A stretch of 64,000 nucleotides of DNA from an uncultured Alphaproteobacteria bacterium (GCA_934254925.1 CAKQMD010000003.1:17727-81726); one strand, 5' to 3'; numbered from the stretch's first letter, positions 14,425 to 36,061 are shown. Notes: generated by a model not told the origin, from the sequence alone. Numbers and translations are program-made.

Positions 14425-14550
14425 TTCTCTCTCCTGAATTTCAATATATGCAGTATACTGCAAATCCCGAGAGTAAACGACGTTTTGTCAACAGCGATGT
14501 CAATGATTGGTTATTATTGTCTCAATTGCAGCGATCAAAATTAAAGCCAT

Positions 14551-20202: not shown

Positions 20203-20881
20203 CCCAATCGCCTGTATCTTCGAGTAAGTCCGGAACGTTCGGAGCGGCTTTTGAGATGCAGGAAACGCTGCGGCTGAGCCAAAGGAAAAATTCGGTAAAT
20301 TTCAAGCCGGTAAGTCTTTTCGGCGACATTAGCGAGAACTTTGCCAACTTGTCGAGATTGGCACCTTGAGTTCCCACCGCATGCACCACGACTTTTTTGT
20401 TTTTTTGCGCAAACCGGCATTTTTCCGCCACGATTTCCCAGTCATAATCCGTCGGTTCACCGTCGCTGATAAGAAAAATCCAGGGCCTTTTGGAAGTAAT
20501 GCCGCAGCTGTCATAAAGACATTTCTGTTCTTCGATTTTTTGCAAAGCCAGTTCCATGGCCTTGCCCAGCGGGGTCAGTCCGCCGGCTTCCATGGTCGGC
20601 GCTTCAAAGTTCATGGCGTCAATCCAGTCCGAGGAAATGACCGCTTCGTCTTTTCCGAAAGCTTTGATGATCAGCAATTGCACGCGCGAACTGGCATCGA
20701 TGTCTTCCTTAAGCTCTTTTTCCAAAGCTTTCAGACCGGCGTTCAGTTGTTTGATCGGTTCGCCGCGCATAGATCCGGAACAGTCCAGTACCAGGACACA
20801 GGGCGTTCTTTCGTTGGCGTTGTCGGCAAATTCCACATAAGGGATCATCTCCTCGCCGAAATTGTTTTCTTGCGCAACCAT
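20192..20881 (-). CDS. von Willebrand factor A domain protein (TerY-like)
   Basis: MIDAS motif VLVLDCSGSM (DxSxS), then later ...LISDGEPTD. First enzyme-less member of the triad. Confidence 0.85.
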   Translation of the reverse strand: MVAQENNFGEEMIPYVEFADNANERTPCVLVLDCSGSMRGEPIKQLNAGLKALEKELKEDIDASSRVQLLIIKAFGKDEAVISSDWIDAMNFEAPTMEAGGLTPLGKAMELALQKIEEQKCLYDSCGITSKRPWIFLISDGEPTDYDWEIVAEKCRFAQKNKKVVVHAVGTQGANLDKLAKFSLMSPKRLTGLKFTEFFLWLSRSVSCISKAAPNVPDLLEDTGDWDEE

Positions 20882-21644: not shown

Positions 21645-22079
21645 ATGAAGGACAAACAATACATCAGCTGGGAAGAGTTTCACCGTCACGTCAAACAATT
21701 GGCCGAAAAAATCAGAGAGGAAGGCGTTTATCGCCAAATCATCGCCGTCAGCCGCGGCGGTCTGCTTCCGGCCGGAACTTTGGCTTATGAATTAAACATC
21801 AGAAACTGCCAAAGCCTGAACATGGTCAGTTATGACGGTGCTGCCGCCCGTCGGGACGAAGACGTGGAAATTTTGGATACCGGCCTGCAGGCGGATGAAC
21901 AAACGCTGATTGTCGATGACCTTTCCGACAGCGGCAGGACCTTTCGCCTGTTGCGTCGTTTGTATCCCAAGGCCCGTTACGTCACGGTTTACAGCAAACC
22001 TGCCGGCCGCAGCCAAGTGGATCTCTGCGCCGTCGAATTGCCAGACCGTTGGGTAGTTTTTCCTTGGGACGTCGAATAA
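21645..22079 (+). CDS. gpt: xanthine-guanine phosphoribosyltransferase
   Basis: Collinear with E. coli Gpt: IIAVSRGGLLPAG, the PRPP loop LIVDDLSDSGRT, YPKARYVTVYSKPAGR and the C-terminal FPWD. Confidence 0.9.
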   Translation: MKDKQYISWEEFHRHVKQLAEKIREEGVYRQIIAVSRGGLLPAGTLAYELNIRNCQSLNMVSYDGAAARRDEDVEILDTGLQADEQTLIVDDLSDSGRTFRLLRRLYPKARYVTVYSKPAGRSQVDLCAVELPDRWVVFPWDVE

Positions 22080-22089
22080 GCCCCAAAAG

Positions 22090-23052
22090 TCAAATATCCG
22101 GGAAGAGGCTCATGCCGCGGCTCATGCGCGTCATCTGCATTTCTATGGACGTTGCCAGATTGAGGCGGCCGCTTTTGATAATGCCGCGTACCTGGTCGCC
22201 TTTTGTGGTGTCCGGATTGGCAAACAAAAAAGTGGTTGCCGGTTTTTTGATGGTGACCCCGGCCAAAACCTGGTGCAAAACGCCGAGCATGCCGCGGGAG
22301 AAGAGGTCATAAGCCAACTCTTCGCTCATGGAGGTTGAGGCAGCATATTTCACTACCGAGGTAATGGCATCGGTGACGTTGTTGGCATGAATCGTCGACA
22401 AAACCAAATGCCCGGATGTCGCCGCCCGCAGAACTTCGCTGGCGGTTTCCGGCGTCAGGATTTCGCCCACCAAGATATAACGCGGCTTGGAACGCAGGGC
22501 CGATTTTAAGGATTCGCCCCATTGGCCGTTTTCCGGCACGGTTTGCTTACAAAGTCCGAGGCCGCCTCGCAGCGAGTGATAAACGCCGTCCAACGGCTGT
22601 TCCGTCGGGTCTTCAATCGTGTAGGCGAAACCGCCTTCGGTATTAAGATATTCTTTCAGCAGACTGGAGATGGAAGTCGTTTTGCCTTGTCCTGTCGGTC
22701 CTGACCATAAGATCAAGCCGGAGGTGTTGCTCAGTGACAGCAGATAATGCGCCAATTCCGGCGGAAAACCGAGGGAACTGAAAGCCGGCACCTGCGGCGG
22801 CATTTTGCGGGCGCAATATTGAATACCGTAAATGCTTTTTGTTCGTTCAATGCGGTAAAACAGGCCTTCATACAAAATAGAGTAGCTGGGGTTTTCGCCG
22901 TCCCAGGTCTTTTCGAGCAGTTCGATGAACTCTTTCAGATCGTCCGGTTCGATAATTGCCAGGCCGTTCGGCGTCCTTTTGTCTGAAATAAACGCTTGTT
23001 TGTCCGGCGTAATATAAATGTCGGAAAAGACGATGTCGTTGATTTTTGCCAT
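22090..23052 (-). CDS. stand-alone PilT/DotB/TraJ-like secretion ATPase (320 aa)
   Basis: Walker A GPTGQGKTT, Asp box YTIEDPTE, Walker B RYILVGEI and His box GHLVLSTIHANN. It has no N-terminal GspE-type domain and no Zn-binding cysteines, so it is the short hexameric PilT/VirB11-superfamily type. Confidence 0.85.
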   Translation of the reverse strand: MAKINDIVFSDIYITPDKQAFISDKRTPNGLAIIEPDDLKEFIELLEKTWDGENPSYSILYEGLFYRIERTKSIYGIQYCARKMPPQVPAFSSLGFPPELAHYLLSLSNTSGLILWSGPTGQGKTTSISSLLKEYLNTEGGFAYTIEDPTEQPLDGVYHSLRGGLGLCKQTVPENGQWGESLKSALRSKPRYILVGEILTPETASEVLRAATSGHLVLSTIHANNVTDAITSVVKYAASTSMSEELAYDLFSRGMLGVLHQVLAGVTIKKPATTFLFANPDTTKGDQVRGIIKSGRLNLATSIEMQMTRMSRGMSLFPDI

Positions 23053-23157
23053 ATTTCACCTCGAATCAAAAATTTTCTGAGTATAAGTCTAGCAAAACTA
23101 TCTTAATAAAACTTAAAAGACGTTAAGATAACGCATCAACCAGTGACGCAGGAAAAA

Positions 23158-24597
23158 ATGCCGCAGACTTTGTTGTTTTTGTTTATTGTCAGTTTAGAAC
23201 CGCTGCTGATGCATTTGCAGTTGTTTCCGCATATCGATTTTGGCAGCGCTTATGCCTTTGTCGTTTATTTTCAGGCATTGTTGTTTTTCGGCTTTTTGCT
23301 GACGCTGCGGCGACGTTGGGGAATTACCTTTTTTGTTGCGGAAGCGTTGGTCTTTTGGCTGTTGTTGCTTTATCATCGTCATTTTGAAGATCCCCTGACG
23401 CTGACGATTGCGACGACGCAATTATATGAAGGGCTGACTTTTGCCGGCAAGAGCCCGCGGTCTTTATGGAATTGGCAGATCGGACTTGTATTGGTCGCGC
23501 TGCTGTTTAAAATCGTTTTCATGAAGCGTTGGTATCGCCCCTTATACCCGGCCGGTTTGTTTCGCTTGGTGTTTTTTGTGCCTTTTCTGGCCTTGGGCGT
23601 CGTCACTTTCCGCAACTTTCACCGTCAGCCGTTCTATAACATGGATTTTCGGATTTATGCTGCCAGTCTGGGGTATCCGCAAGCCTGGATTTATGAGGTC
23701 TTTACTACCCTGGACCGCAGCCTTCTGATCGACAAGACCGTGGAGGCCTCCGCCGAAACCCTTGAGACCTTGCCGCCGGAACTTCAAGGCTTGTCCCTGC
23801 CGAACAACGTTTATTTGATTCAGGTGGAAAGTTTTGACTACCAAGCTTTCAGCGCGCGGGTCAATCAGAAGCCGCTGATGCCTTTTTTGAACCAAATCGC
23901 CGATTCCGCGGTGGTCTACCACTTGACGGATGCGCCGCATTATGCCTCGTCCAACGTTGATTTTACGATTTTGACCGGCGCGACCAATTCCCGAGATTTT
24001 TACATGGTGATGTATTACCTGCATCCCTGGAAGGTTTATCGGGAAGTAGAAACCCTGCCGAAGATCATGCGACAAAAGGGCTATTATAACAGTTTTTACC
24101 ATGGTTTTACCCGTCGTTTTTATGAGCGCGGCGTCAATTATGAACGAATGGCCTTTGATCGCCTTTATTTCAGTGAAGACCTGCCCATAACCGCAAAAGA
24201 AGGCAAATGGGGTTACCGTGATGCGGATCTTTTGTCCTTTGTGAGCGAAGACAACCGCAAAAATCCGGCGCCCAAGAAGTTCAATTTCATCATTACCGTC
24301 AGTTCACACGAACCTTTTGAAGTCGGCGAAATCCATCGGAAACCTTTTTCTCGTCCCGGAAATCGCCGAGAGCTCTATTATAACAGCATGAATTATGTGG
24401 ACCAAGCGCTGCAACGTCTGATAACCCAAGCGCCGAACGATTCTTTGTTTATTGTTTATTCTGATCACGCGGCCGACGTTCTGGAAAAAGAAGACACGCT
24501 GCTGCTGATTTATGACAAACGCGCCACGCGCCCTCATCGCAGTACCTATAGTTTTTATAAGATGCCGTTGCTGATCAAAACCTTGCTCAAACAATAA
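23158..24597 (+). CDS. LtaS/OpgB-like membrane-bound phosphotransferase (alkaline-phosphatase/sulfatase superfamily)
   Basis: About five N-terminal TM helices, then VYLIQVESFDYQAF, ASSNVDFTILTG (nucleophile region), WGYRDADLL and VSSHEPF. I prefer ATG 23158 (AGGAAAA RBS) to GTG 23143. Confidence 0.8.
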   Translation: MPQTLLFLFIVSLEPLLMHLQLFPHIDFGSAYAFVVYFQALLFFGFLLTLRRRWGITFFVAEALVFWLLLLYHRHFEDPLTLTIATTQLYEGLTFAGKSPRSLWNWQIGLVLVALLFKIVFMKRWYRPLYPAGLFRLVFFVPFLALGVVTFRNFHRQPFYNMDFRIYAASLGYPQAWIYEVFTTLDRSLLIDKTVEASAETLETLPPELQGLSLPNNVYLIQVESFDYQAFSARVNQKPLMPFLNQIADSAVVYHLTDAPHYASSNVDFTILTGATNSRDFYMVMYYLHPWKVYREVETLPKIMRQKGYYNSFYHGFTRRFYERGVNYERMAFDRLYFSEDLPITAKEGKWGYRDADLLSFVSEDNRKNPAPKKFNFIITVSSHEPFEVGEIHRKPFSRPGNRRELYYNSMNYVDQALQRLITQAPNDSLFIVYSDHAADVLEKEDTLLLIYDKRATRPHRSTYSFYKMPLLIKTLLKQ

Positions 24598-24624
24598 GCC
24601 TAAGTTTCAGCAATATATTGTCCT

Positions 24625-24651
24625 AAAAAAGCCCTGCCACAAGGGCAGGGC
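24625..24651 (-). terminator. rho-independent terminator of pilin gene 1
   Basis: The minus strand reads GCCCTGCC-cttgt-GGCAGGGC followed by TTTTTT, 25 nt after the stop codon. Confidence 0.8.
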
Positions 24652-24675
24652 CGGAGAAGATCCGCTGACGCGAGG

Positions 24676-25287
24676 TTAGTAATAGGTCCAAAGAATGCTG
24701 TTGTTGGTGTCCTTGGAGGCGCATTCGGCTGCAGCCTGTCCCAGCGAAATGGGGAGCTCGGTCGTAAGGGTTGTGCCGCCGGGTGTATGAACATTACCGC
24801 CCCCGGAAGAAACGTCCTCATCCCCTCCGTCGGAAGAGCTGCCGGAAGAACCGCTGCTGACTTGAATACTGTACAAACCTTCAGTACCCCAGTCGGAAGA
24901 TGCCAGAGAAGTACAAGTTTCGCGTCCCAAGCCTTTGAACTCGATTTGGAAACGTGCCACGTTGCCATCCTGAGCCTTGACGACAACGTCACCGCCGAAG
25001 GCATTGACGAACTTTTTGGAAGTTTGCACCATGTCTTGCGGCAAAATATTGTATTGATAAGCCGTTTCCGTGGTCAAACCCGCATAACTGGAAGCCGTGG
25101 CATAGGCCGTCCGAATGTTGATCAATAACATCGACATTTGATCCTGCGCCTTGGTCAGCTTAAATTTGGCCATGGCTTTGGAATAACCGGAAATACCGCC
25201 GACCGACAAGACACCGATAATGGCCAGCACGCCGAGCATTTCCACCATGGAACGTCCGGCTTGTTCGATTTTTGTGAATGTTAACAT
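24676..25287 (-). CDS. type IV pilin paralogue 1 (203 aa)
   Basis: Class III signal MLTFTKIEQAG/RSMVEMLGVLAIIGVLSVGGISGY, with Gly at -1, Glu at +5 and a hydrophobic alpha1-N. Two Cys flank a variable C-terminal loop. AAGGAGAAAG RBS. Confidence 0.85.
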   Translation of the reverse strand: MLTFTKIEQAGRSMVEMLGVLAIIGVLSVGGISGYSKAMAKFKLTKAQDQMSMLLINIRTAYATASSYAGLTTETAYQYNILPQDMVQTSKKFVNAFGGDVVVKAQDGNVARFQIEFKGLGRETCTSLASSDWGTEGLYSIQVSSGSSGSSSDGGDEDVSSGGGNVHTPGGTTLTTELPISLGQAAAECASKDTNNSILWTYY

Positions 25288-25327
25288 GATCTTTCTCCTT
25301 AAAAAAAATTTTTCACTCTATAGGGAA

Positions 25328-25356
25328 ATTATAGCAAAGCCCCTTAACGGCGACAA
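25328..25356 (-). promoter_or_regulatory. sigma70-type promoter with extended -10 upstream of pilin gene 1
   Basis: The minus strand reads TTGTCG-(17 nt)-TATAAT with TGc immediately upstream of the -10 (TGcTATAAT). The -10 ends 41 nt before the ATG. Confidence 0.5.
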
Positions 25357-25414
25357 TATCTCCTTAGCCATAAAAAGGGATCAGAGGATTATAACTTTAG
25401 TTATTCCGAAGTTA

Positions 25415-25441
25415 TAAAAAAGGCCCTGATAAAACAGGGCC
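25415..25441 (-). terminator. rho-independent terminator of pilin gene 2
   Basis: The minus strand reads GGCCCTG-ttttat-CAGGGCC followed by TTTTTT. Confidence 0.7.
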
Positions 25442-25464
25442 CGATCAGAGGAGTCAAAAAGAAA

Positions 25465-26046
25465 CTAGTAATAATACCAGGTAATGGTGTTGGTGGCGTC
25501 TTTGGTGTCGCAGTAGCCTTCACTGTTTGCGTCTTTTAAAGTGATCGGCAGTTTGCCTTTGGCTCCGTCACCGCCGCCGCCGGGCGTATGATAACCGGCC
25601 GTTCCCACCATAATACCGGCCAAACCTTCGGTACCCCAGTCGGAGGAGGCCAAAGAAGCACAGGTTTCTTTACCTAACCCACTGAATTTTATGTAAAAAC
25701 GCGAAACATCGGCGGCATCGGTTTTGGAACCTGTTCCGATCTCTACCGCACCGCCGAAAGCGTTGACGAAAACGCTGGAAGTCTGAACCATGTCTTGCGG
25801 CAAGATATTGTATTGATAAGCCGTTTCCGTTTCCAAACCGGAGTAACTGGAGGCCGTGGCATAGGCCGTCCGAATATTGATCAACAGCATCGACATTTGA
25901 TCCTGCGCCTTGGTCAGCTTAAACTTGGCCATGGCCTTGGAATAACCGGAAATACCGCCGACCGACAAGACGCCGATAATGGCCAGCACGCCGAGCATTT
26001 CCACCATGGAACGTCCGGCTTGTTCGATTCTCGAAAACTTTAACAT
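25465..26046 (-). CDS. type IV pilin paralogue 2 (193 aa)
   Basis: MLKFSRIEQAG/RSMVEMLGVLAIIG... The first ~100 aa are nearly identical to paralogue 1 and the C-terminus is divergent. GAGGAGAA RBS. Confidence 0.85.
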   Translation of the reverse strand: MLKFSRIEQAGRSMVEMLGVLAIIGVLSVGGISGYSKAMAKFKLTKAQDQMSMLLINIRTAYATASSYSGLETETAYQYNILPQDMVQTSSVFVNAFGGAVEIGTGSKTDAADVSRFYIKFSGLGKETCASLASSDWGTEGLAGIMVGTAGYHTPGGGGDGAKGKLPITLKDANSEGYCDTKDATNTITWYYY

Positions 26047-26200
26047 ATTTTTTTCTCCTCATCTTAATAATTTGTTTTGTGCAACCGTAAGACGGCACAA
26101 CCTTTTCTTCCGGTTTGCTTGCCGAAAAAGAAGGAAAAGCGTCAAATCTTATTTTCAATTATAAGGAAAATAAATTAAGAAATCATGAACGTTTGATAGA

Positions 26201-26226
26201 CAAAAAGCCCCGCGAAGCCACGGGGT
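26201..26226 (-). terminator. rho-independent terminator of pilin gene 3
   Basis: The minus strand reads CCCCGTG-GCTT-CGCGGGG (with one G-U pair) followed by CTTTTTG. Confidence 0.6.
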
Positions 26227-26254
26227 CAATTTGAGGAAAGACCATGGAACGATG

Positions 26255-26839
26255 TCAGTAATAAGTCCAGCGAATGGCATTTGTCGCGTCTTTTGAGGCA
26301 CATTCGATATTTGCCCGTGACAAGACGATCGGCAGGCTGCGCTCAATATCGTCGGAATATTGCAAAGTGTGGGATTCGTTAAACGTCGGCGCCGCCGATC
26401 CGTCGGAAGCTGTACCGACTTCAATGCTGTGCAGACCTTCGGTACCCCAGTCGGAAGTCGCCAGGGAGATGCAGGTTTCTTTACCCAGGCCGCGCAGTTC
26501 AATCGTAAACCGGGAGTCCGTATCCGTTCCCACCACGATTTCACCGCCGAAAGCGTTGACGAATTGGGTTGAGGTTTGAGCCATTTCCTTGGGCAGAATA
26601 TTATATTCGTAAGCCGTCTGCGTCGTCAGCCCGGCATAGCCCGAAGAAGTGGCATAAGCCGTCCGAATATTGATCAACAGCATCGACATTTGGTCTTGTG
26701 CTTTTGTTAACTTATACTTGGCCATGGCCTTGGAATAACCGGAAATGCCGCCGACCGACAAAACGCCGATAATGGCCAGCACGCCAAGCATTTCCACCAT
26801 GGAACGCCCGGCCTGTTCGATTTTTGCGATTGTAGACAT
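26255..26839 (-). CDS. type IV pilin paralogue 3 (194 aa)
   Basis: The start is set at ATG 26839 (MSTIAKIEQAG/RSMVEM...), preceded by AGGAGAAAG. The 16 extra codons in the ORF-track start are not conserved in the paralogues. Confidence 0.85.
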   Translation of the reverse strand: MSTIAKIEQAGRSMVEMLGVLAIIGVLSVGGISGYSKAMAKYKLTKAQDQMSMLLINIRTAYATSSGYAGLTTQTAYEYNILPKEMAQTSTQFVNAFGGEIVVGTDTDSRFTIELRGLGKETCISLATSDWGTEGLHSIEVGTASDGSAAPTFNESHTLQYSDDIERSLPIVLSRANIECASKDATNAIRWTYY

Positions 26840-26931
26840 GGTCTTTCTCCTGCTTAAGTCACTCTTTTCAGTATATAGTTTAACCAATTAACAAAGTCTG
26901 AACAAGAGTATCTTTAGTCATAAAAATTTAG

Positions 26932-26963
26932 CTGAAAAATCCCCGGAAAACGGGGATTTTCAG
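26932..26963 (-). terminator. rho-independent terminator of pilin gene 4
   Basis: 10-bp stem AAAATCCCCG / CGGGGATTTT with a 5-nt loop. A U-run continues from the stem on the minus strand. Confidence 0.7.
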
Positions 26964-26977
26964 GCTGAATATAAACT

Positions 26978-27556
26978 TTAGTAATAAGTCCAGCGAATGG
27001 CGTTCCCCGTATCCTTGGAGGCGCATTCCGTCGCAGCCTGGCCTAAAGGAATGGGAAGTTTCGTCGCGTCAGTTGTACCGCCGGGTGTATGAGCCGGCGC
27101 CGTATCGGCGGCAAAGGTTCCCGTGGCGTTCACGTCAACGCCGAGCAAACCTTCAGTACCCCAGTCGGAAGATGCCAGAGAAGTACAGGTTTCGCGTCCC
27201 AAGCCGCGGAAGATGATCTGAAAGCGCGCTTTGTTGGTTGGGGTCAAAACTTCTACCTCGCCGCCGAAAGCGTTGACAAAAACGCTGGAAGTCTGAACCA
27301 TGTCCTGCGGCAAAATATTGTATTGATAAGCCGTTTCCGTTGTCAAGCCGTCATAACTTGCCGCCGTGGCATAGGCTGTACGGATATTAATCAGCAGCAT
27401 CGACATTTGGTCTTGCGCTTTTGTCAGCTTAAATTTGGCCATCGCCTTAGAATAGCCGGAAATACCGCCGACCGACAAGACGCCGATAATAGCCAGCACG
27501 CCGAGCATTTCCACCATGGAACGGCCCGCTTGTTCAGTTTTTCTCCATTGCTTCAT
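26978..27556 (-). CDS. type IV pilin paralogue 4 (192 aa)
   Basis: MKQWRKTEQAG/RSMVEMLGVLAIIG... The architecture is the same and it ends in IRWTYY. CAGGAGA RBS. Confidence 0.85.
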   Translation of the reverse strand: MKQWRKTEQAGRSMVEMLGVLAIIGVLSVGGISGYSKAMAKFKLTKAQDQMSMLLINIRTAYATAASYDGLTTETAYQYNILPQDMVQTSSVFVNAFGGEVEVLTPTNKARFQIIFRGLGRETCTSLASSDWGTEGLLGVDVNATGTFAADTAPAHTPGGTTDATKLPIPLGQAATECASKDTGNAIRWTYY

Positions 27557-27606
27557 GTAAAAGATCTCCTGATATATGTAGTCAAAGTCTGTGGCTTTGT
27601 TCTTGA

Positions 27607-28191
27607 TTATTCAACACGCCAGAGCAATGTGTTTTTCTCAATACATATATCTTTAATCTTTTTATAATTAATTGGCAACTTCTTTTTACCCCCCCAAGTA
27701 TAATTTTCTTCAAATTTTTTATTGAAGACACTGAAGAGGACCACGTTCAACATGAAGCTGTCGTTGAAGTTGTGGGCTGCAAGAGCCTCGCAGTTTTTTT
27801 TGTCAAGACCTGTGAGGACAATGTCAAAAAAACGGCTCCCCGGCATAACGGTATAACCTTCTTTGCCGGTACCGATTTTGATTTCCGTCTGAAAAGGGCT
27901 CAACAATCGGCCGTCAACCGCCATTCCTTCGGGATATAACCGATTGTTGAGAACTTCTTTGTTGTTAAGGCCCCAATAGCTGGGACGATTGCGGTAAAAG
28001 CGCTGTATCTTCTGTTGCAGGGCTTCTATCTGAGCAGCCGCGACCTGAACTTGGGTCGATTCTCGCGGCGAAGAGCAGGTAAAGGGCAAAACCAAGATCA
28101 GAATCAAAAGTCCGACTGCGCCTGCCGCCGCGGCACAAAGCTTTCGGCGGCTGATGAAACGGATTTTGCTCACAAATGCCGAGACGGACAT
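27607..28191 (-). CDS. pilin-fold paralogue without prepilin cleavage motif (194 aa)
   Basis: It starts at ATG 28191, with GGGAG upstream and 4 nt after the platform-gene stop. N-terminal anchor RRKLCAAAAGAVGLLILILVLPF with no G/xxxxE. The rest aligns with the pilins: QIEALQQKIQRFYRNRPSYWGL vs QMSMLLINIRTAYATASSYAGL. Both Cys are conserved (KKNCEAL / DICIEKN) and it ends in LLWRVE vs IRWTYY. Confidence 0.6.
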   Translation of the reverse strand: MSVSAFVSKIRFISRRKLCAAAAGAVGLLILILVLPFTCSSPRESTQVQVAAAQIEALQQKIQRFYRNRPSYWGLNNKEVLNNRLYPEGMAVDGRLLSPFQTEIKIGTGKEGYTVMPGSRFFDIVLTGLDKKNCEALAAHNFNDSFMLNVVLFSVFNKKFEENYTWGGKKKLPINYKKIKDICIEKNTLLWRVE

Positions 28192-28195
28192 TTTT

Positions 28196-29317
28196 TTAAG
28201 CTCCCATACTGCTGGTAATTTGGTCTTGCATCTCAAAAGTACCCATCACCGCCCAGGCGATGACGCCGGCAATGGCCAATAACGCAACCATGTTCAAGAT
28301 GGAAGCTTTCTGCTCAATCAGATAAACGGATTCCTCCAGCCATTCGTTTGCCAAATTTTCCAGGGCTTCTTCAAAATTGTCCAGTTCGGAATAGATTTTC
28401 AAATCGGCGATAATCTCGGGATCTGGAAATGTCAGGCCGGTTTTGCTTAACGCCTGTCCCAGGTTGTCACCGTTGTTGACGTAAATCAGCGTCTTGTCGA
28501 TCCGTTCCTTCAAATACCGGCTGGCGTCTCGCCGCAAAGCGCGCATGGCGGTGGAGACCGGCGTTCCGCCCTTAACTAAGGCCGAAAGTGCCAAAAGCCA
28601 GCTGATTCCGGTAAAAATCTTATACAGGGACCAAGGCGGAACATGATCAAACCAAGCGCGGATTTGCCCGGTCCAAACGCCGATGGTAAAATAAATAATG
28701 GCCATGATCACCGGCAAGGTCGCAAAAGCCACCATCCAATATTTGCTGATCCAACCCGACAAATCGACCAAATTGCGTGCCAAACCGGTCCAGCGGACGG
28801 AAGGTGCCGCGTCGACCATCGGCGGCACCATGTAAACCCCGATGGCATAAATGATCAAAACCGCCATCATAAACAAAAAACTCGGATAAGCGATGGCGCC
28901 AACAATCGGACGAATCATCTTGGTGGATCCTTCGGTCACGCGGATCAAGTTCACCAAAGCTCCTTCCAGGTCGGAAACGTCGCCGACGGAAAGCATCAGT
29001 CTTTCCCGGTCAGGCGCCCAACCGCGCAAAGCGTCGGAAAAAGGTTCGCCGTTTTGCAGCGAACGGCCCCAATGGGCCAAAGCGATGGCCAAAGGTTCGC
29101 CGGGATTCTTGCCGCCGTTGCTGGCACTGTCGTAAAGCATGTCAAGCGCGTTCATCAAAGAAAATCGGTTGCGCATCAGAGAAGCGATTTTGCGATAAAT
29201 TTTCAGGCGAACGCCATTGGACATCTTAATGATCATCCTTGCATAATATTCTTCCACCTTGTTAAAGCGGCGGATGGCGTTTTGCATTGCTTCCGAGCGT
29301 TTAGGTTCAATTGCCAT
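28196..29317 (-). CDS. type IV pilus inner-membrane platform protein (GspF/PilC family; PilR-like in R64 nomenclature)
   Basis: 373 aa with a duplicated GspF-type cytoplasmic domain and three TM helices, for example SLMNALDMLY...PFSDALRG...ERLMLSVGDVSDLEGAL. Confidence 0.8.
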   Translation of the reverse strand: MAIEPKRSEAMQNAIRRFNKVEEYYARMIIKMSNGVRLKIYRKIASLMRNRFSLMNALDMLYDSASNGGKNPGEPLAIALAHWGRSLQNGEPFSDALRGWAPDRERLMLSVGDVSDLEGALVNLIRVTEGSTKMIRPIVGAIAYPSFLFMMAVLIIYAIGVYMVPPMVDAAPSVRWTGLARNLVDLSGWISKYWMVAFATLPVIMAIIYFTIGVWTGQIRAWFDHVPPWSLYKIFTGISWLLALSALVKGGTPVSTAMRALRRDASRYLKERIDKTLIYVNNGDNLGQALSKTGLTFPDPEIIADLKIYSELDNFEEALENLANEWLEESVYLIEQKASILNMVALLAIAGVIAWAVMGTFEMQDQITSSMGA

Positions 29318-29328
29318 GGCCTTTTTCC

Positions 29329-30993
29329 TTAATATACCGGACGCTGGTCTAACAAGCCGGTCCAGCGTTCCACTTCGTCTAAATCAATATAGCCTTTAAG
29401 CATGCGTTCAATGGCGGCGTCCTTGAGGGTGCGTCCGTTCAGGTCGCTGGTCCAGTAGTCGATGGCTTTGCGGGTTTCGCCGTTGACCATCAATTCCAAA
29501 AACATGGCATCCGGCAAAATGATTTCCGGCACGCACATACGTCCTTTGATGCCGAGGTTGTTGCAGAATTTGCAGCCCGGACCGCGCACGAAAGTGTTTT
29601 CGATTCCGAAATCTCCCAAAGCCGTTTTCAGCCTTTTCACCGACGGGGCGTCAAGCCTTTCCTTTACCGACACCCGGCAATGCGGACAGAGTTTTCTGAA
29701 CAAACGCTGAGAGATCAGCCCTTTGATCAACTCGGGATCAAGCAGTTTAAATGTTTCCACGCCCATGTCTCGCAAACGCATCAAAATGGCCGGCGCCGAG
29801 TTGGCGTGCAGCGTAGACCACATTCCGTGACCGGAAAGCGCTCCCTGAAAAGTCAGTTGCGCCGCGGCCAAAGCGCGGATTTCTCCCACCATAATCACAT
29901 CCGGGTCGGAACGCAAAGCCGCCGAAAGCGCTTTAGTAAACTGTTCGGCCTTTTCTTCTTCGGTATTGGCGTTGGTCACCGGCATTTGTCTGGCACCGGG
30001 AATAGGATATTCCGGAGGGTCTTCCACGGTCAGAAGATTTAGTTCGTAATTCTTCTCCTGCAGCAGTTTGATCATGTTTCTTTGCAGCGTCGTCGACTTT
30101 CCCGATCCCGTCGGCCCGGCGATGATGCTGAGCCCCACCGGTACGGCGCGCAGACGATAAAACAATTCTTCCTCATATTCGCCGAAGCCCAAAGCCGCCA
30201 AGTCGCCCGAACCGTCGGGGTTGTCGTCGGCATAAAGCAGACGCATGACCAAATACTGCGATCCGAAAGCGATCGGGTTAAACTGCAGGCGGATGGCCAA
30301 AACGTTGTGCGGCAGCATCAGTTTGCCTTTGGATCCGCGCAACGGGGTCGAACCAAGCTTTTGTGCGCCCTGAAATTCGTTTTGCGCATAGTTTGAGTCG
30401 GAAATGTCGGCAGAGGCGAAAGCCGCGCGCACAAAGGATTCTCCCCATTCTTTGTTATATTCCATTTCGGTCTGCATCATGCCGTTGACGCGAAACATGA
30501 TCTGTGTGTTGTCCGCCACCACAATGTGAATATCCGACACTTTTTGACTGGCCGCCCGCGCCACGACGTTGACGAAGTCTTTCTGCATTTGCAGTTGGTC
30601 GAGGTCGGTGTCGACTTCCGCCGAGGTCTGGTTTCTTTCGCCGAAAGCATAAACGGCGTTTAATTCGTTTTGAGAAACATAGGTAGGCTTGGCGATGTTA
30701 AGCTTGCGCTTGCGGGCCAAAACCTCAAAGCTCATGACCCGGCCGTCGAATTTGTGCGATTCCGAAACCAGGAAACGCCCGTCGGTAAACAGCGCCAAAA
30801 GGCGTCGCGTATCATCGTTTATGACCAGAGACGACCCAGGCAGAGTCTGCAGCTTGTTGCCGTTGGCAAAATATTGTTCAATTCGTCCCAAGGACTTTTT
30901 TTCGGGTGCTGTTTCAGGTTGAGCTGCGGCTGCCGTCGTTTCTGCGGCACCGTTGGACGTCGTCTCTTCTAATTCCTCATTTTCCTCAGCCAT
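29329..30993 (-). CDS. type IV pilus assembly ATPase (GspE/PilB family; PilQ-like in R64 nomenclature)
   Basis: Walker A GPTGSGKSTT, Asp box LTVEDPPEYP, Walker B DVIMVGEIR and His box GHGMWSTLHAN. Tetracysteine motif CPHC...CKFC. Confidence 0.9.
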   Translation of the reverse strand: MAEENEELEETTSNGAAETTAAAAQPETAPEKKSLGRIEQYFANGNKLQTLPGSSLVINDDTRRLLALFTDGRFLVSESHKFDGRVMSFEVLARKRKLNIAKPTYVSQNELNAVYAFGERNQTSAEVDTDLDQLQMQKDFVNVVARAASQKVSDIHIVVADNTQIMFRVNGMMQTEMEYNKEWGESFVRAAFASADISDSNYAQNEFQGAQKLGSTPLRGSKGKLMLPHNVLAIRLQFNPIAFGSQYLVMRLLYADDNPDGSGDLAALGFGEYEEELFYRLRAVPVGLSIIAGPTGSGKSTTLQRNMIKLLQEKNYELNLLTVEDPPEYPIPGARQMPVTNANTEEEKAEQFTKALSAALRSDPDVIMVGEIRALAAAQLTFQGALSGHGMWSTLHANSAPAILMRLRDMGVETFKLLDPELIKGLISQRLFRKLCPHCRVSVKERLDAPSVKRLKTALGDFGIENTFVRGPGCKFCNNLGIKGRMCVPEIILPDAMFLELMVNGETRKAIDYWTSDLNGRTLKDAAIERMLKGYIDLDEVERWTGLLDQRPVY

Positions 30994-31002
30994 TTCCTGT
31001 CA

Positions 31003-32460
31003 TTACCTGATAATCATGTCATTGCCCATTCCCGGAATTGTCGTACTGGTTTTCAAAAACCTGTTTGCCGGAGAATCTGGATCGTTGTCTTCTTTGATCG
31101 CCGTTGCGTTTTCCACGGAATCCTTAAGGGTAATGTCGGTTTTAAGCGGTTCTTTGTCCAGAATGCCGCCGGCGGCGAAATAAAGATAATCTTTGATGCC
31201 GCCTTTGTCAGCCCGGATATAAGTTGAGGTAATCTCGTCGACAATGTGTCCGGTCTGTAAAGCCGTCCCGACCTTAACCATAAACGGCGTGCCGTCTTTG
31301 TTGATCAGTTTGGCAATCAGTTCGCCTCCTTTGCCGCGAATTTCCATAACGGCGTATAGGTCCGAAAGTTTAATGACTTCTTCGACGACAACCGGCTCCG
31401 CTTCGACTTTTGTTTCCTCGACGGCTTCTTCCCCTTCGGCAAACGGATTTTGTTTGGCCTGCATTTCTCTTTCCTGAGCCTCTATTCTGGCTTTCAGAAT
31501 GGAAATCTGCGTCTGCAGGTCATTAACCTGTTGGGCGAAAGCTTCTTTTGCCGCGGCCGCGTCTTGATTGGCTGTCGCAGCCAGTTGGGCGATCTCGTCA
31601 AATTTGGCGCTGATGTCTGCAACGAGTTCTTTTTTCTCGTTTTTCAATTGGTTCATTTGCAAATACAGGTCGCCGTTGTTCTTGACCCATTTCTGCGTCT
31701 CTTCCAACATCTGATTTTTATAGGCTTTCAAGAGCTTTTCCTGCCGTGCCTTTTCGTATTGGATGTCCAATTCCCGCAGTTTTTGCTTTTCCTGAATGAC
31801 TTTTTGTTCCTGCTCTTTTTCCCATTCGATCTTTTTGCGTTCTTTTTCTTCGGCTTTGGCTTTTTCTTCGTCAATGGCCTTTTGTCGCTGGTTTTTAATG
31901 GCTTCGATTTCGTTTTTCACCTTTTCGCGCCGCAGTTCCAAAGACAAAAGCGCCGTTTGTTTTTCAATGTCGGACATCTGCGAGAACAAATTATCGTCAA
32001 TCACGGCCGTTCCCGTGCCGAGAATGCCGTTGTCAGGCTCTTTTGCTGCCAAAACCGGTGCTTTTTCTTCCTCAGTTTCCGGCAGGTCTTGCGGCAGATT
32101 CAGTTCCAACCCCTGCGGTTGCGGAGCGGGGGATGCTGCCGGCGGTACCGGTGAGGGAACAACGTTGGTATTGGCGGCTTCTTCCGCGCCAAAGGGCAGA
32201 GTCCCCGAAGACGGCGGCGTTACCAGTCCCGCTGCGGGAGCGGCGGCGGGAACGGCTTCCCCTTCTTCTTCAAATAGGGAAATCTCGTCCGGAATGCTGG
32301 GATCGTCAAGCGTAGACTTGCTTTGCTGGCCGTTGGTCAGGGGAATGGTTTCTTCTTCAAGGGTGACCACGCCCTGCGCCCGGCTTTCAAAAGCCGCGGC
32401 AGCGCAAAGAACCAGAGCCAATGCGGTAGTGCCTAATGTCTTTTTAATTTCATAATGCAT
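31003..32460 (-). CDS. PilP-like pilus biogenesis protein with long Pro/Ala-rich and coiled-coil extension
   Basis: The start is set at ATG 32460 (MHYEIKKTLGTTALALVLCAAAAFESRAQG signal, GAGGGGA RBS). The middle ~250 aa are E/K/Q heptad coiled coil. The C-terminal ~90 aa (LYAVMEIRGKGGELIAKLINKDGTPFMVKVGTALQTGHIVDEITSTYI) look like the small beta domain of type IVb PilP. The call also rests on synteny. Confidence 0.45.
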   Translation of the reverse strand: MHYEIKKTLGTTALALVLCAAAAFESRAQGVVTLEEETIPLTNGQQSKSTLDDPSIPDEISLFEEEGEAVPAAAPAAGLVTPPSSGTLPFGAEEAANTNVVPSPVPPAASPAPQPQGLELNLPQDLPETEEEKAPVLAAKEPDNGILGTGTAVIDDNLFSQMSDIEKQTALLSLELRREKVKNEIEAIKNQRQKAIDEEKAKAEEKERKKIEWEKEQEQKVIQEKQKLRELDIQYEKARQEKLLKAYKNQMLEETQKWVKNNGDLYLQMNQLKNEKKELVADISAKFDEIAQLAATANQDAAAAKEAFAQQVNDLQTQISILKARIEAQEREMQAKQNPFAEGEEAVEETKVEAEPVVVEEVIKLSDLYAVMEIRGKGGELIAKLINKDGTPFMVKVGTALQTGHIVDEITSTYIRADKGGIKDYLYFAAGGILDKEPLKTDITLKDSVENATAIKEDNDPDSPANRFLKTSTTIPGMGNDMIIR

Positions 32461-33727
32461 AGATGATCCCCTCATATTCCCAAGTTTCATTACTCGGAGT
32501 ATATTTTATATTCTTAATCTCAAGTCCTGAAAATTTTGTTAACAAATCCGTCCATATTATTGGATTATACCGTGACGAGAAGCGAAAACCCAAAGCCGGA
32601 TAAACCGTTTTTTCCGGAGAAGTGTAGGATGTCCGGCTCAAAGAGATCTGTTGCCCGATGGATTGAAACAAATCATTGACCGTATTGCGCAGGTCTTCCA
32701 TATTTTTCATCGGCGGGGAAGAAATCTGCGAAATTTTGTTCAACGGCATGGTAACCGCCAAATTGGTGCCGTTGTCGGAAAACGAACGGCCCGAAAAGAC
32801 TAAGCCCGACTGGTCAAGCGCTTTTTGCGCCCAAGACAAACGACCGATCTTCATGCTCCAAGAGGTCATGACACCGTTGGCCGAACAGGCGACCGGTCCG
32901 ATCTCCCAGCCCGGCGGCATAATCTTAACCACGTCCTGTACGCCTTCGTAGCACTCTTTCATCGTCTGTGTCGGATCATTGAGCTTTTCCCAAGGTTTGA
33001 CTTCGGGAAGCTTCTCAATCTTAGGAACGACTTTGGGTTGTACCGGCACGACCACCGGCCTTTTGGTCGGAGTCAGAAAAATCTTGTCAATCAAGCTGGA
33101 GACCAGCCAAATGCCCACGACCGCCGAAATTACGACGACCATCAGCAGCTTGGCGCCGCGCAAGGCTTTGATCTTTTGCAGCTTAGACTTGACGCCTTTG
33201 GACAAGAGCCCGCTGAGCTGAACTTCTTCGGTTTCTTCGATACCCCATTCCGCCGGCGCAATTTTGCGGCCCCAATCGGGCACGGCCAGCATGGACATAA
33301 ATTGGTTTCTGGCGTCTTCCTCTTTCAAAAACAGCATATCGCCGTCGGAAAGGATAATATCGTTGCGGATACAGACATACCACCAACCTTCGTTAACCTT
33401 AAAGACGGCAATGAAAGAAGCCTTGTCCGACATGGCCGAAGCCAGCGAAACCGCCGCGACGTTTTCGCCGCTTTTGTACCCCTCGTGCGAGACGCAGATA
33501 CCGAACTGCGGCGCTTTTCCGCCCTTGATGCAAAACAGGTCGGCGCCTTCGAGAACCCCGGCGGAGGCTTCTTCCACCTCCATAAAGGGATCGTCTTTAT
33601 TCTGCAAAGGCTGCCAGAACAAGCTGGTTGCATAAGTTATGCCGTCCACCGCGATTTTGGTTCCCCAAGATCGCTTGGCGGTTTTCTCGTCATAATCTTC
33701 TTCCAATAATTTAGCTTCTTCCAGCAC
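32450..33727 (-). CDS. PilO-like (PilO2-type) type IVb pilus accessory protein
   Basis: 425 aa with one central TM helix (LLMVVVISAVVGIWLVSSLI). Its size and its position between the secretin and PilP-like genes match R64/PAPI-1 PilO. The call is mainly from synteny. Confidence 0.45.
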   Translation of the reverse strand: MLEEAKLLEEDYDEKTAKRSWGTKIAVDGITYATSLFWQPLQNKDDPFMEVEEASAGVLEGADLFCIKGGKAPQFGICVSHEGYKSGENVAAVSLASAMSDKASFIAVFKVNEGWWYVCIRNDIILSDGDMLFLKEEDARNQFMSMLAVPDWGRKIAPAEWGIEETEEVQLSGLLSKGVKSKLQKIKALRGAKLLMVVVISAVVGIWLVSSLIDKIFLTPTKRPVVVPVQPKVVPKIEKLPEVKPWEKLNDPTQTMKECYEGVQDVVKIMPPGWEIGPVACSANGVMTSWSMKIGRLSWAQKALDQSGLVFSGRSFSDNGTNLAVTMPLNKISQISSPPMKNMEDLRNTVNDLFQSIGQQISLSRTSYTSPEKTVYPALGFRFSSRYNPIIWTDLLTKFSGLEIKNIKYTPSNETWEYEGIIYAL

Positions 33728-33745
33728 TCTTTTTCTCCGTGAGAA

Positions 33746-35347
33746 TTACAGGTCTTTCATCCGCGATTCCGGGGTCAGCGGCGATTCCAAAACCACCGGT
33801 GTCAAAATGATGACCAACACGCTGCGTTTTTTTGCCGCCTGTGCGTTTCCGCCCAAGAGCGAATTGGTCGCCGATCCTGTTCCTTCTTTGGATGTTTCGT
33901 TCGAGACTTTTTCATACCCGGTCAAAATCAACGATTCTCCGGAAGTCATGGCCACTTCCTGCGTAAAACCGCGAGATTCGATCTTTGGGTTCTGAATATA
34001 TTGGTTGTCTTCTTCGTTTCCGAAGTTGACCGCTTCCAGAGAAATCAGGTCCGACAGCGTCAGGTTGAACATGATCAACATCCGGCCGTGTTCGAGAATA
34101 CGCGGCAAAACATCCAGGGTAAAGCCGTATTCGACTTCTTCCGTGGTTACCGAGATGTCATAGTTATTGCCGTCCGTTCCGCTGTTGGTTTTGGTCATTT
34201 CGGCAATGTAGTTTTCTTTGGTCATCACCTGGATCGGCGCCGGCTTGTTGTTCAGCGTCGTCACCGTACCGCTGGTGATCAAGCTGGTGGTCTTCTGCGT
34301 CGACAAAGCCTGCACGGCAGCGTCGGCCGTCCAGTTGCCGCTGATCAATCCCCAGGAAAGCGTATCGGACATTCCGTCACCGGTAGCCACGCCGGAAGCG
34401 CCGGCCATGCCGATTTTGGTGACTCCGTCGTCAAAAACAGCTTTAAGATTCAGGCCGTATTTGTCGGAATCGTCCAAAGTAACCTGCAGAATTTTAACGC
34501 TGATGGCCACTTGCCTGGATAAACGGGCATTTTGTTCGTTAATGTATTTTGCCACTTTTTTGATGTCATTGGGCGTCGCCGTCAGAGAGATCGTCCCGTC
34601 AGCCGGAGACATTGTCAGTTTTGCGCCGCTGTCGATCATGGAAGTAATTGTCTTTTCGATGTTCCCCCATAATTCAACTTCCGCCGAGCTTGACAGCGAG
34701 ATGGACGAACTGCCGCCTCCGGAAGAAGAGTTGCCTCCCACGTTCACCGACAAGTTTGGTTTTGTCGGCAGACTGTAGACGACAAAGGTCTTGGTGATGT
34801 ACTTGTAGAACATGATCTCGCCTTTTTCGTATTTCCACCAAATACCGAACCGATTGGCGACTTCATTGAGCAAACCGCTCAACGGCCCCTGATAAGACAA
34901 AAGCATTTTGTTTGGTTCCGTCCAGTCGACGTTGATGGATTCCGGCGTCGGCTTGTTGGCTTCGGCATTTTTGAAGACGTCAGCCTCCAGCTGCGGTGCA
35001 TAACGAACGCCCAGCGAGGTGATTTTATTGATCATGTCGCCGATTTCAAACAGGGTGATCGGACGATTGCTGATCAAGGTAATGCCGTCTTTGGTCTCCA
35101 AATAGGAAGGCAGCGGCTGTCCCTCATATTCCACTTCGCTGGTGTCGCCGAGCCAAATTTCGTCTTTGACCTTGACCAAAGAGTCATTGGCCTTGGTGGT
35201 GGGAATCTTCGCTTCTTCTTTTAACTTCGTTGTTGCGTCGACTTCTCTTTCCACGGTTGCGTCCATGCTGGTGGAAATGGAGCATGAAGAAAGGCTTGCC
35301 CAGGCAAATGCCGCCAGTGTCACGGTTGTAATTTTAGTTATATGCAT
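33746..35347 (-). CDS. lipoprotein secretin of type IVb pilus (PilN-like)
   Basis: Signal plus lipobox MHITKITTVTLAAFAWASLSSC. The C-terminal secretin domain reads ...VTTLNNKPAPIQV...GFTLDVLPRILEHGRMLIMFNLTLSDL...SVLVIILTPVV. Confidence 0.8.
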   Translation of the reverse strand: MHITKITTVTLAAFAWASLSSCSISTSMDATVEREVDATTKLKEEAKIPTTKANDSLVKVKDEIWLGDTSEVEYEGQPLPSYLETKDGITLISNRPITLFEIGDMINKITSLGVRYAPQLEADVFKNAEANKPTPESINVDWTEPNKMLLSYQGPLSGLLNEVANRFGIWWKYEKGEIMFYKYITKTFVVYSLPTKPNLSVNVGGNSSSGGGSSSISLSSSAEVELWGNIEKTITSMIDSGAKLTMSPADGTISLTATPNDIKKVAKYINEQNARLSRQVAISVKILQVTLDDSDKYGLNLKAVFDDGVTKIGMAGASGVATGDGMSDTLSWGLISGNWTADAAVQALSTQKTTSLITSGTVTTLNNKPAPIQVMTKENYIAEMTKTNSGTDGNNYDISVTTEEVEYGFTLDVLPRILEHGRMLIMFNLTLSDLISLEAVNFGNEEDNQYIQNPKIESRGFTQEVAMTSGESLILTGYEKVSNETSKEGTGSATNSLLGGNAQAAKKRSVLVIILTPVVLESPLTPESRMKDL

Positions 35348-36005
35348 TCTCATCCTCCATGGTTTCAATGACCAAGACGCGGTTGCCTTTGTAGAAGGTT
35401 GCTACCGGCGCCGGCTGTGCCCTGGCAAAGGCGCGGATCAATGCCGAGCTCACGTCGGCAAAGCGCCCGCGGAACATGGCGCCGGCTGTAAGGGTATAAT
35501 TTCTGTTGGTGTTCCAAATCAGTCTCCAGCCCGAACGATCACTCCATTCCGTGAGCAGGCCTTTTAAGGTTTTACCTTCTTCTGCCAACCAATCCTCGAC
35601 GGGATCTTCGCCGTTAAGCGCCTCTTCGGAAGCCGTATCGTCGCTGTTTTCGCTCATGGAAATTTCTTCTTCATAGTCAGTAACCTCTTCCTCGATTGTC
35701 GGAGGAATGGAAGCCGAGACGTTGCTTCCGGCACCGGCCTGGACAATTCTCTGGTCGCGGGGCGTTCTCTCGCCGAACTCTCGGTAATCGGCCGCCACTT
35801 GGGTATAGTTGACAAACTCGTCGTCAGGAACCGCGGCTGCCGGTGCTACCGTCCGGGTTTCTTCAATATAGATCTGATCTTCCTCGGAAGGCGCCCATCC
35901 GTCTTGAAAACAGGCGCAGCCCGCTGTCAGCGTAAGGAGCAGCAGGCCAAAAACAATCGGCACTTTCTTGTCCATTTTTTTGTTCCTTGAGTTAAATTTT
36001 GTCAT
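35334..36005 (-). CDS. lipoprotein with C-terminal TcpQ/PilL-like domain (putative pilotin/secretin partner)
   Basis: Lipobox LLTLTAGC, then an acidic linker. The C-terminus LKGLLTEWSDRSGWRLIWNTNRNYTLTAGAMFRGRFADVSSALIRAF...FYKGNRVLVI follows the TcpQ-domain pattern. It lies immediately upstream of the secretin gene. Confidence 0.5.
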   Translation of the reverse strand: MTKFNSRNKKMDKKVPIVFGLLLLTLTAGCACFQDGWAPSEEDQIYIEETRTVAPAAAVPDDEFVNYTQVAADYREFGERTPRDQRIVQAGAGSNVSASIPPTIEEEVTDYEEEISMSENSDDTASEEALNGEDPVEDWLAEEGKTLKGLLTEWSDRSGWRLIWNTNRNYTLTAGAMFRGRFADVSSALIRAFARAQPAPVATFYKGNRVLVIETMEDENAYN

Positions 36006-36061
36006 AGTTTTTCCTATCATACATATTGAAAAATAAATAATCAAGCTTCAGGCGCAACTTA

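Follow-up and report, generated by a model that had tools for sequence, protein, structure and literature searches.

Four tandem major pilin paralogues in a chromosomal type IVb pilus operon of an uncultured alphaproteobacterium

Introduction

Why would one pilus locus carry four full-length genes for its major pilin? The question is raised by a 64,000-nucleotide stretch of DNA from an uncultured Alphaproteobacteria bacterium (GCA_934254925.1, CAKQMD010000003.1:17727-81726), here called the window. Its minus strand holds four head-to-tail, full-length pilin open reading frames (ORFs), c1 to c4, at positions 24676-27556. To our knowledge, the characterised type IVb pili (Bfp, Tcp, CFA/III, Longus and the Pil systems of R64 and S. 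Typhi) have been described with a single major pilin. In Neisseria, promoterless, 5'-truncated donor cassettes supply a frequent, one-way transfer to a single expression locus, driven by a guanine quadruplex (G4), and the variable regions change. An initial annotation of the window, made from its sequence alone, had proposed a pilE/pilS-like variation scheme with complete genes in place of silent cassettes, or a mixed-subunit filament.

Our comparison of strains and related species indicates that the array supplies a fixed set of subunits and is no device for Neisseria-style antigen switching. The reading we prefer, with confidence evenly balanced, is that c1-c4 are four functional paralogues for the major subunit of a single type IVb pilus, chromosomally encoded and of the Bfp/Tcp/R64-Pil kind, and that they probably enter mosaic or alternative filaments.

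Results

Four intact type IVb pilin genes

The four genes, in the order in which they are read, are:

c1, 27556-26978, minus strand: 192 residues, type IVb major pilin paralogue and first of the array (ORF, alignment)
c2, 26839-26255, minus strand: 194 residues, pilin paralogue with the most divergent 5' half
c3, 26046-25465, minus strand: 193 residues, pilin paralogue and donor of the conversion tract in contig L005
c4, 25287-24676, minus strand: 203 residues, pilin paralogue with a D-region insert rich in Ser and Gly

For c2 we take the ATG at 26839, which is supported by a Shine-Dalgarno sequence (SD), and not the TTG further upstream at 26887. No frameshift or internal stop was found in any of the four coding sequences. 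The proteins are 70-78% identical overall by alignment. All of them contain two invariant Cys (C124 and C178 in c1 numbering) and the block C-x-SLA(S/T)SDWGTEGL, and all end in W(T/Y)YY. ORFs and alignment therefore bear out the tandem, intact paralogues of the initial annotation, together with their coordinates, Cys pair and common end. Long antisense ORFs over the pilin genes (e.g. 27089-27667, plus strand) were rejected as shadows of the coding strand.

Pfam matches to PilS and Bundlin were above cut-off for c1 (1.3e-12 and 1.4e-09) and for c4 (4.5e-14 and 1.2e-10). These two proteins scored 48-53 bits against PilS (PF08805, cut-off 22 bits) and 39-42 bits against Bundlin (PF05307, cut-off 22.3 bits), and precomputed assignments to both families exist for all four copies. 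When a profile of 60 family members was compared with solved structures, the best match was bundlin BfpA (1zwt, 2e-12), followed by TcpA and S. Typhi PilS. In the AlphaFold2 model of c1, whose mean predicted local distance difference test score (pLDDT) is 87, residues 10-61 form a helix and the globular domain has four strands. Searched against the PDB with Foldseek, the model returns type IVb pilins (TcpA, CofA, PilS) in each of the first 16 places, with a probability of 1.00. Family profiles and model together indicate that c1-c4 are type IVb major pilins of the bundlin/PilS family, which makes the earlier call of type IV pilins more specific.

All four prepilins begin with MKQWRKTEQAG, followed after the predicted cleavage point by RSMVEMLGVLAIIGVLSVGGI. 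The leader has 11 residues, the last of which is Gly. It is followed by RSMVE, which includes Glu5, and each protein has a long alpha-1 helix and a globular domain with two Cys. After the Gly the common sequence reads RSMVEMLGVLAIIGVLSVGGISGYSKAMAK(F/Y)KLTKAQDQMSMLLINIRTAYAT, and this F/Y position is the only difference among the copies in mature residues 1-53. A residue other than Phe at +1 has historically been one criterion for type IVb pilins. Here the alignment to mature TcpA places R12 at +1, M14 at +3 and E16 at +5, and cleavage between Gly and Arg (G/R) is therefore predicted from homology. The Pfam N_methyl and TIGR02532 motif models stay below cut-off (13.6 against 21.2 bits) because the +1 residue is Arg instead of Phe. 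Arg at +1 had been singled out as unusual. It is real, but it is no peculiarity of this locus, since G/RSM(V/I)E is invariant in 111 of 111 pilins of the clade.

The published definition of a type IV pilin leader, a hydrophilic segment with Gly at -1 before about 21 hydrophobic residues with Glu5 (PMC4471445), describes c1-c4 as well. Historic type IVb criteria ask for a leader of about 15-30 residues and a prepilin of 180-200 residues, length rules that no longer hold (PMC4471445). Set against them, c1-c4 fit in length (192-203 residues) and have Arg at +1, but their leader has only 11 residues. Both Cys are retained in 60 of 60 relatives, and 82 of the 111 clade pilins have exactly two; a disulfide between them is putative.

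Conserved and variable parts of the four copies

Over codons 8-99 the copies share 81.5-91.7% of nucleotides and 87-97% of amino acids, with a proportion of synonymous differences (pS) of 0.23-0.59. The earlier description of the first ~100 codons as almost identical in DNA was thus overstated. Substitutions and indels cluster at codons ~100-111 and ~138-170. The latter stretch lies between the two Cys, which agrees with the view that the variable part is the Cys-bounded D-region. The internal block SLASSDWGTEGL had been called near-identical in c1 and c4, and its DNA identity in this pair is indeed 91% (alignment codons 121-135). Over alignment codons 116-142 the synonymous divergence (dS) of c1 and c4 is 0.28, whereas all other pairs exceed 1.

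Stability and selection across strains

The same array, in the same gene order, was found in 11 contigs from independent samples, and it is therefore no assembly artefact. One contig matches the window without a difference, four match it at 99.7-99.9% identity and L006 at 97.8%. The c2 and c3 proteins are each identical in the 11 contigs. Comparing the window with L006 gave 46 synonymous nucleotide changes in the four genes and non-synonymous change in just 2 codons, and we therefore read all four copies, variable regions included, as being under strong purifying selection. None is decaying, an outcome that the initial annotation had allowed for. A search of JGI metagenomes returned two distant relatives and no further strains.

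Sequence exchange between the copies

Among c1-c4 the non-synonymous divergence (dN) is 0.02-0.07 in the 5' halves (codons 8-99) and 0.31-0.49 in the 3' halves; dS is 0.28-1.16 in the former and runs from 0.87 to saturation in the latter. The closest pair shifts from c3/c4 in the 5' half to c1/c4 in the 3' half. Recombination tests on the paralogues, as the initial annotation had suggested, gave a divided answer. Site patterns differ between the halves (chi-square, p 0.009) and shared-fragment permutation tests gave p 0.005-0.02 for three pairs, but the pairwise homoplasy index (PHI) was weak (p 0.04-0.13). Recombination is therefore not claimed from the paralogue alignment alone.

In contig L005 (sample ERZ27234887) one tract of exchange can be delimited:

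L005 conversion tract in c4, 25072..25128, minus strand: nucleotides 160-216 of the gene (codons 54-72), c3-like, including A69S and T72E

In this tract L005 c4 has the c3 state at 9 of the 10 sites that discriminate c3 from c4, through nine clustered substitutions that are all to the c3 base. The rest of the contig differs from the window at 3 sites in 4344 nucleotides, and the Poisson probability of the tract is ~6e-19. The c3 gene is unchanged in L005, so that the transfer is non-reciprocal, and it is confined to the conserved half. The assembler (k=141) is an unlikely source because the identical flanks are only 26-36 nucleotides long. Two c3 residues, A69S and T72E, were moved into c4, and exchange can in this way create allelic protein variants. 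The strain comparison for chimeric copies thus yielded this c3-like tract and no D-region chimera.

Single-nucleotide polymorphisms (SNPs) in L006 point the same way. They occupy 28 of 234 synonymous third positions that vary between the paralogues, against 3 of 173 that are invariant (odds ratio 7.7, p 9e-5). At 27 of the 28 sites the new L006 allele is already present in another copy. The sister species L008, L009, L010 and L012 show the pattern over a longer distance. In the 5' halves, paralogues from the same genome are 89-93% identical and orthologues 81-85%; in the 3' halves, same-genome paralogues are 59-65% identical and orthologues 69-76%.

From these comparisons we conclude that short-tract gene conversion between the copies is real. 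Because its main target is the 5' half, it homogenises rather than diversifies. The earlier proposal that the copies exchange sequence holds on the strength of the L005 tract, the 7.7-fold SNP enrichment and the concerted 5' halves in sister species.

Signs of exchange or duplication on a larger scale come from related species. Copies 2 and 4 of L022 (9220-9843 and 10770-11392) are 99.7% identical over 624 nucleotides, with a different copy between them. Near-identical full-length copies (97-99.7%) occur in L022, L012 (8661-9186 and 9325-9849), L013 and L018. Such copies suggest that whole genes were recently duplicated or converted there.

Search for signs of programmed variation

Searches with tblastn and blastn found no truncated or silent pilin cassettes elsewhere in the 64-kb window. 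Neither strand of 22000-31000 contains a G4 motif (G3+N1-7 x4). No simple-sequence repeat that could act as a switch was found at the locus, where the only homopolymers are T8 in the c4 leader and G7 in the accessory gene upstream of c1. A search for repeats of an invertible promoter or shufflon found only short, imperfect inverted repeats, none of which flanks a spacer or a 3' segment, and there is no recombinase among the neighbouring genes. Neisseria combines one expression locus with truncated cassettes; here all copies are full length, each with its own start, SD and terminator.

The D-regions did not change across the 11 contigs, which are consensus assemblies in which rare subpopulation variants are invisible. 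Among 5.8 billion proteins we found no allele intermediate between c1-c4 and the next relative, at 59% identity. With stable D-regions and with neither cassettes, G4 nor flanking inverted repeats at the locus, the proposal of pilE/pilS-like variation was not supported.

Expression signals

Each gene has its own SD: AGGAG at 27570-27566 for c1, AGGAG at 26851-26847 for c2, GAGGAG at 26060-26055 for c3 and AAGGAG at 25300-25295 for c4. The distance from SD to ATG is 7-10 nucleotides in all four. Each gene is also followed by a G+C-rich hairpin with a T-run, which begins 17-29 nucleotides past the stop (-17 to -24 kcal/mol). Both features agree with the initial annotation. The predicted signals are:

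Terminator-like hairpin after c1, 26925..26970, minus strand: A-tract, CCCCG stem and U-tract, -19 kcal/mol, z score -4.8
Terminator-like hairpin and T-run after c2, 26200..26225, minus strand: folding and T-run scan
Terminator-like hairpin and T-run after c3, 25413..25442, minus strand: folding and T-run scan
Terminator-like hairpin and T-run after c4 at the array end, 24622..24652, minus strand: -23.6 kcal/mol
Sigma-70-like promoter match 5' of c4, 25356-25328, minus strand: TTGTCG-17-TATAAT with an upstream TG, a consensus match only

In the clade as a whole, a hairpin and T-run lie downstream of 89 of 110 major pilin genes, compared with 0 of 110 shuffled controls. The design of one pilin with one predicted terminator is therefore clade-wide. 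The 50-nucleotide spacer between the accessory gene and c1 contains no terminator-like fold (-2.2 kcal/mol). By consensus scan the promoter match at c4 is the sole intergenic sigma-70-like match within the array, which fits the earlier remark that c4 alone has an obvious promoter. A T8 tract (25308-25301) sits between this match and the SD of c4. The tract differs between strains, with T>A in L003 and a length shorter by two bases in L006; it is in the leader, outside the promoter spacer.

Occurrence in related bacteria

A protein database search returned more than 7,800 relatives, and the named ones all come from metagenome-assembled genomes (MAGs) of gut Alphaproteobacteria. In a set of species-representative genomes, 269 stretches encode relatives. 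We fetched 79 of these 269, all from uncultured alphaproteobacterial MAGs. Where a title names a source, it is human, ruminant, rabbit or mouse gut. The same operon order is present in ~60 of the 79 loci, which are species-level MAGs. After the accessory gene these loci have 1-4 major pilin genes, and most have a single copy. The closest relatives of the window have two or three, and four are found in L022 and in the window. Profile scores separate c1-c4 (354-389 bits) from the accessory gene (24 bits).

Contigs from short reads commonly stop within the repeated 5' pilin halves (L004, L092, L005, L006). Copy numbers from MAGs are probably underestimates because contigs break inside the array. 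In some MAGs, major pilin genes also lie away from the pilus machinery (L034, L037, L038, L040, L041, L043, L045, L048, L050, L061, L064, L067, L069, L076, L079 and L081), and a genome can therefore have more of these pilins than its operon-linked array encodes. L034 has three such distant genes, two of them on the opposite strand.

We searched the literature on pili of gut Alphaproteobacteria of the RF32/CAG-239 type and on multi-copy type IVb major pilins, and found nothing on this pilin family. Judged from the genomes collected here, these bundlin-like pili form a large unstudied family and belong to the core chromosomal traits of uncultured Alphaproteobacteria from gut and rumen.

The pilus operon and its neighbourhood

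Judged by gene content and order, the type IVb pilus operon is complete and chromosomal, and the array forms its 3' end. The other operon genes, and two genes downstream of the array, are:

Upstream operon genes, 31003..37774, minus strand: 570-residue protein, TcpQ-like protein, secretin, R64-type PilO-like protein and 495-residue protein
Assembly ATPase, 29329..30993, minus strand: T2SSE (GspE/PilB family), by Pfam and family matches
Platform protein, 28196..29317, minus strand: T2SSF/PilC family, by Pfam
Bundlin-like accessory protein, 27607..28191, minus strand: 194 residues as called, Pfam Bundlin 1.8e-06
LtaS-like sulfatase-family membrane enzyme, 23143..24597, plus strand: 484 residues, convergent with the array, pilus link putative
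PilT-like ATPase, 22090..23052, minus strand: 320 residues, candidate retraction motor downstream of the array, best solved relatives PilT

The accessory protein has an N-terminal membrane anchor and lacks the G-x4-E prepilin motif. It is kept at the same position in related loci at 29-40% identity, and c1 begins 50 nucleotides after its gene. The G7 tract in this gene (27689-27695, coding strand) is a possible slippage site; its length did not change among the strains compared. The PilT-like ATPase occurs at the same position in most related loci with 71-76% identity, and by analogy with BfpF it suggests a retractile type IVb pilus.

The nearest solved relatives of the LtaS-like enzyme, a member of the sulfatase/alkaline-phosphatase family, are LtaS lipoteichoic acid synthases. 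Neisseria PptB belongs to the same family, and by this analogy the enzyme could be a pilin phospho-form transferase. The gene is at the same spot in ~12 related loci (L011, L015, L016, L020, L029-31, L044, L054, L058, L070, L075). Its presence showed no association with Ser-rich pilins (p 0.10).

Beyond the pilus operon are housekeeping genes (polA, gyrB) and a separate type IV secretion cluster, and base composition around the locus is unremarkable. The secretion cluster (38548-61000, plus strand) encodes VirB2-like and VirB4 proteins, two VirB8 paralogues, a CagX/VirB9-like protein with a SPOR domain and a 1139-residue protein with beta-flower and RHS repeats; two very large ORFs in it (1459 and 1318 residues) have no Pfam match. 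Genes for a Ser/Thr kinase, a PP2C phosphatase and a VWA protein stand in a row at 17996-20881 (minus strand). Not far away, at 12589-14463 (minus strand), is a 624-residue flagellin-like gene beside a response-regulator-type gene and a porin gene. No evident pilus link was seen for any of these genes. An Rfam scan of 22-31 kb with E up to 1 gave only sub-threshold chance matches.

Discussion

We propose a tandem duplication as the origin of the array. Divergence of the beta1-beta2 loop and the D-region loop, which make up the C-terminal surface, would be old, and their differences would have been preserved. In the polymerisation half, formed by alpha-1 and the alpha-beta region, selection and conversion would have kept the copies interchangeable, so that four subunits fit one machine. 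The c1 gene would be transcribed with the operon, read-through would be lowered at each hairpin, and c4 would have a promoter to itself, so that c1 and c4, at the least, would be made together. Their co-presence would favour mosaic heteropolymer filaments whose composition is set by the transcription of each gene. The probable benefit would be a mixed pilus surface (specificity of adhesion or bundling, escape from immunoglobulin A [IgA] or pilus-specific phage) and not switching. Taken to its full extent, this would be a four-component mosaic filament, assembled stochastically through identical alpha-1 helices, in which conversion maintains the assembly half and four old surface types are preserved, as a strategy of the whole lineage. 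We offer that fuller version as a tentative possibility.

Several points weigh against the proposal. Co-expression, co-assembly and a selective benefit are all deduced from the DNA. Alpha-1 is nearly invariant clade-wide, and its identity among the four copies is by itself no evidence of co-assembly. The promoter calls are consensus matches only. No prepilin peptidase (Peptidase_A24) match was found among the scanned ORFs of the window, and processing at G/R is a prediction. As to exchange between copies, the shared-fragment tests become borderline once corrected for 6 pairs, the PHI test on four paralogues is weak, the L005 tract is known from one short-read metagenome contig, and the excess of SNPs at paralogue-variable sites could in part come from site-specific constraint.

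In the main alternative, the same machine would build homopolymers with different surfaces, each pilin being expressed under its own conditions through a separate promoter and regulator input, with the terminators insulating the units. The array has features that suit this explanation: each gene has its own terminator, the spacers of 138-208 nucleotides could hold promoters and are non-homologous, with cross-matches in the coding parts only, and the promoter match at c4 is clear. A precedent is Thermus thermophilus, for which two distinct pili made from different pilins are reported (PMC7203116). Yet only one intergenic promoter match was found, and no regulator gene could be recognised among those of the array. 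Moreover, c1 has neither a separate promoter nor a preceding terminator, and is thus expected whenever the machine is made. We consider such alternative filaments rather doubtful. A further explanation is that one copy is the true major pilin and the other three are low-abundance minor or initiator pilins, priming assembly or placed at the tip, like TcpB, CofB or BfpI/J/K. Against it, the known type IVb minor pilins are larger or clearly divergent. The copies are of the same size, have the same invariant residues and score as major pilins where the accessory protein does not, and a single copy suffices in most related species. What commends the idea is that type IVb systems are reported to require at least one minor pilin (PMC5207764), while the operon has no typical one with a prepilin motif, the accessory protein lacking G-x4-E; a terminator after each gene would also grade the amounts. 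Even so, we judge it improbable.

Two other explanations are less probable still. If the copies were redundant dosage duplicates, or neutral copies heading for loss, the range of 1-4 copies across species and the near-identical copies of some relatives would be natural. The 3' halves in this species have reached the dN values given above, however, the copies are conserved between strains nearly without amino-acid change, and their reading frames are intact, so that we find redundancy very hard to credit. Programmed variation of the Neisseria pilE/pilS type, with frequent conversion that moves variable segments between complete genes, draws on two true observations, namely that variable segments are flanked by conserved blocks and that conversion between copies does happen. 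It is nevertheless highly unlikely. The exchange observed lies mainly in the conserved half, the D-regions are constant in 11 contigs from different samples, the protein collections hold no intermediate alleles, and strain changes against L006 are overwhelmingly synonymous; truncated cassettes are lacking in the window, as are a G4 motif, suitable inverted repeats and a recombinase at the locus. We therefore retain, at the strength given in the Introduction, the reading of four functional major subunits.

Known systems place the locus as follows. In bfp, a single major pilin gene, with Leu at +1 of its product, stands at the start of a plasmid-borne operon. Bfp of enteropathogenic Escherichia coli (EPEC) is nonetheless similar: BfpA is the closest solved relative by sequence (1zwt, 2e-12) and of the same fold class, and both operons have a secretin, an assembly ATPase, a platform protein and a second, PilT-like ATPase (BfpF in bfp). 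The window differs in its four major pilin genes at the end of a chromosomal operon, in Arg at +1, in the presence of TcpQ-like and R64 PilO-like genes, and in having no peptidase gene in the cluster. Tcp, CFA/III and the R64/S. Typhi systems each use one major pilin; in R64 and S. Typhi it is the minor pilin PilV that varies, through a shufflon. TcpA, CofA of CFA/III and PilS of S. Typhi/R64 are related to c1-c4 as top structural matches, through the Pfam PilS family and through the TcpQ-like and PilO-like accessory genes. Unlike R64 and S. Typhi, the window locus yielded no shufflon-type repeats. With Neisseria pilE/pilS the array shares conserved blocks around variable segments and conversion between copies; it differs in its complete, predicted expressible copies, in the absence of G4 from 22000-31000 and in its stable variable regions. 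In Thermus thermophilus, a type IVa system, PilA4 and PilA5 are mutually unlike and form no tandem array. The likeness there is that one bacterium is reported to assemble more than one pilin into filaments (PMC7203116).

The best functional analogy is S. sanguinis, with several highly similar full-length major pilins (PilE1/PilE2, and also PilA1-3). PilE1 and PilE2 use one machine and form stochastically mixed filaments, and single mutants are piliated (PMC10628169, PMC11121087). This monoderm pilus is the only bacterial type IV filament in which a mixed polymer has been seen in a structure (PMC10628169). At the gene level the window presents the same picture: four full-length genes with near-identical assembly helices at one pilus locus. 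The differences are that S. sanguinis is monoderm, that the globular part is unrelated, that it has two or three copies, and that co-assembly is established there and conjectural here.

The pilin family, the machine type and arrays of several major pilins outside type IVb were already known. New are a type IVb system whose major pilin array has four copies, the clear segmental concerted evolution of this array, and its occurrence in a very large unstudied family of Arg+1 pilins from uncultured gut Alphaproteobacteria. In one sub-lineage the gene for the major subunit has been multiplied to up to four stable, selected copies. Their two evolutionary modes, a homogenised 5' half and a distinct 3' half, are a natural example of segmental concerted evolution at an assembly interface. 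The locus offers material for testing what degree of subunit heterogeneity is compatible with a type IVb machine and whether a prepilin peptidase accepts Arg at +1; its practical value is modest for now. If the filaments are mosaic, these bacteria would have a mixed, heritable pilus surface without switching, which may serve bundling or self-recognition, adhesion to mucus or cells, and dilution of the targets of IgA and phage.

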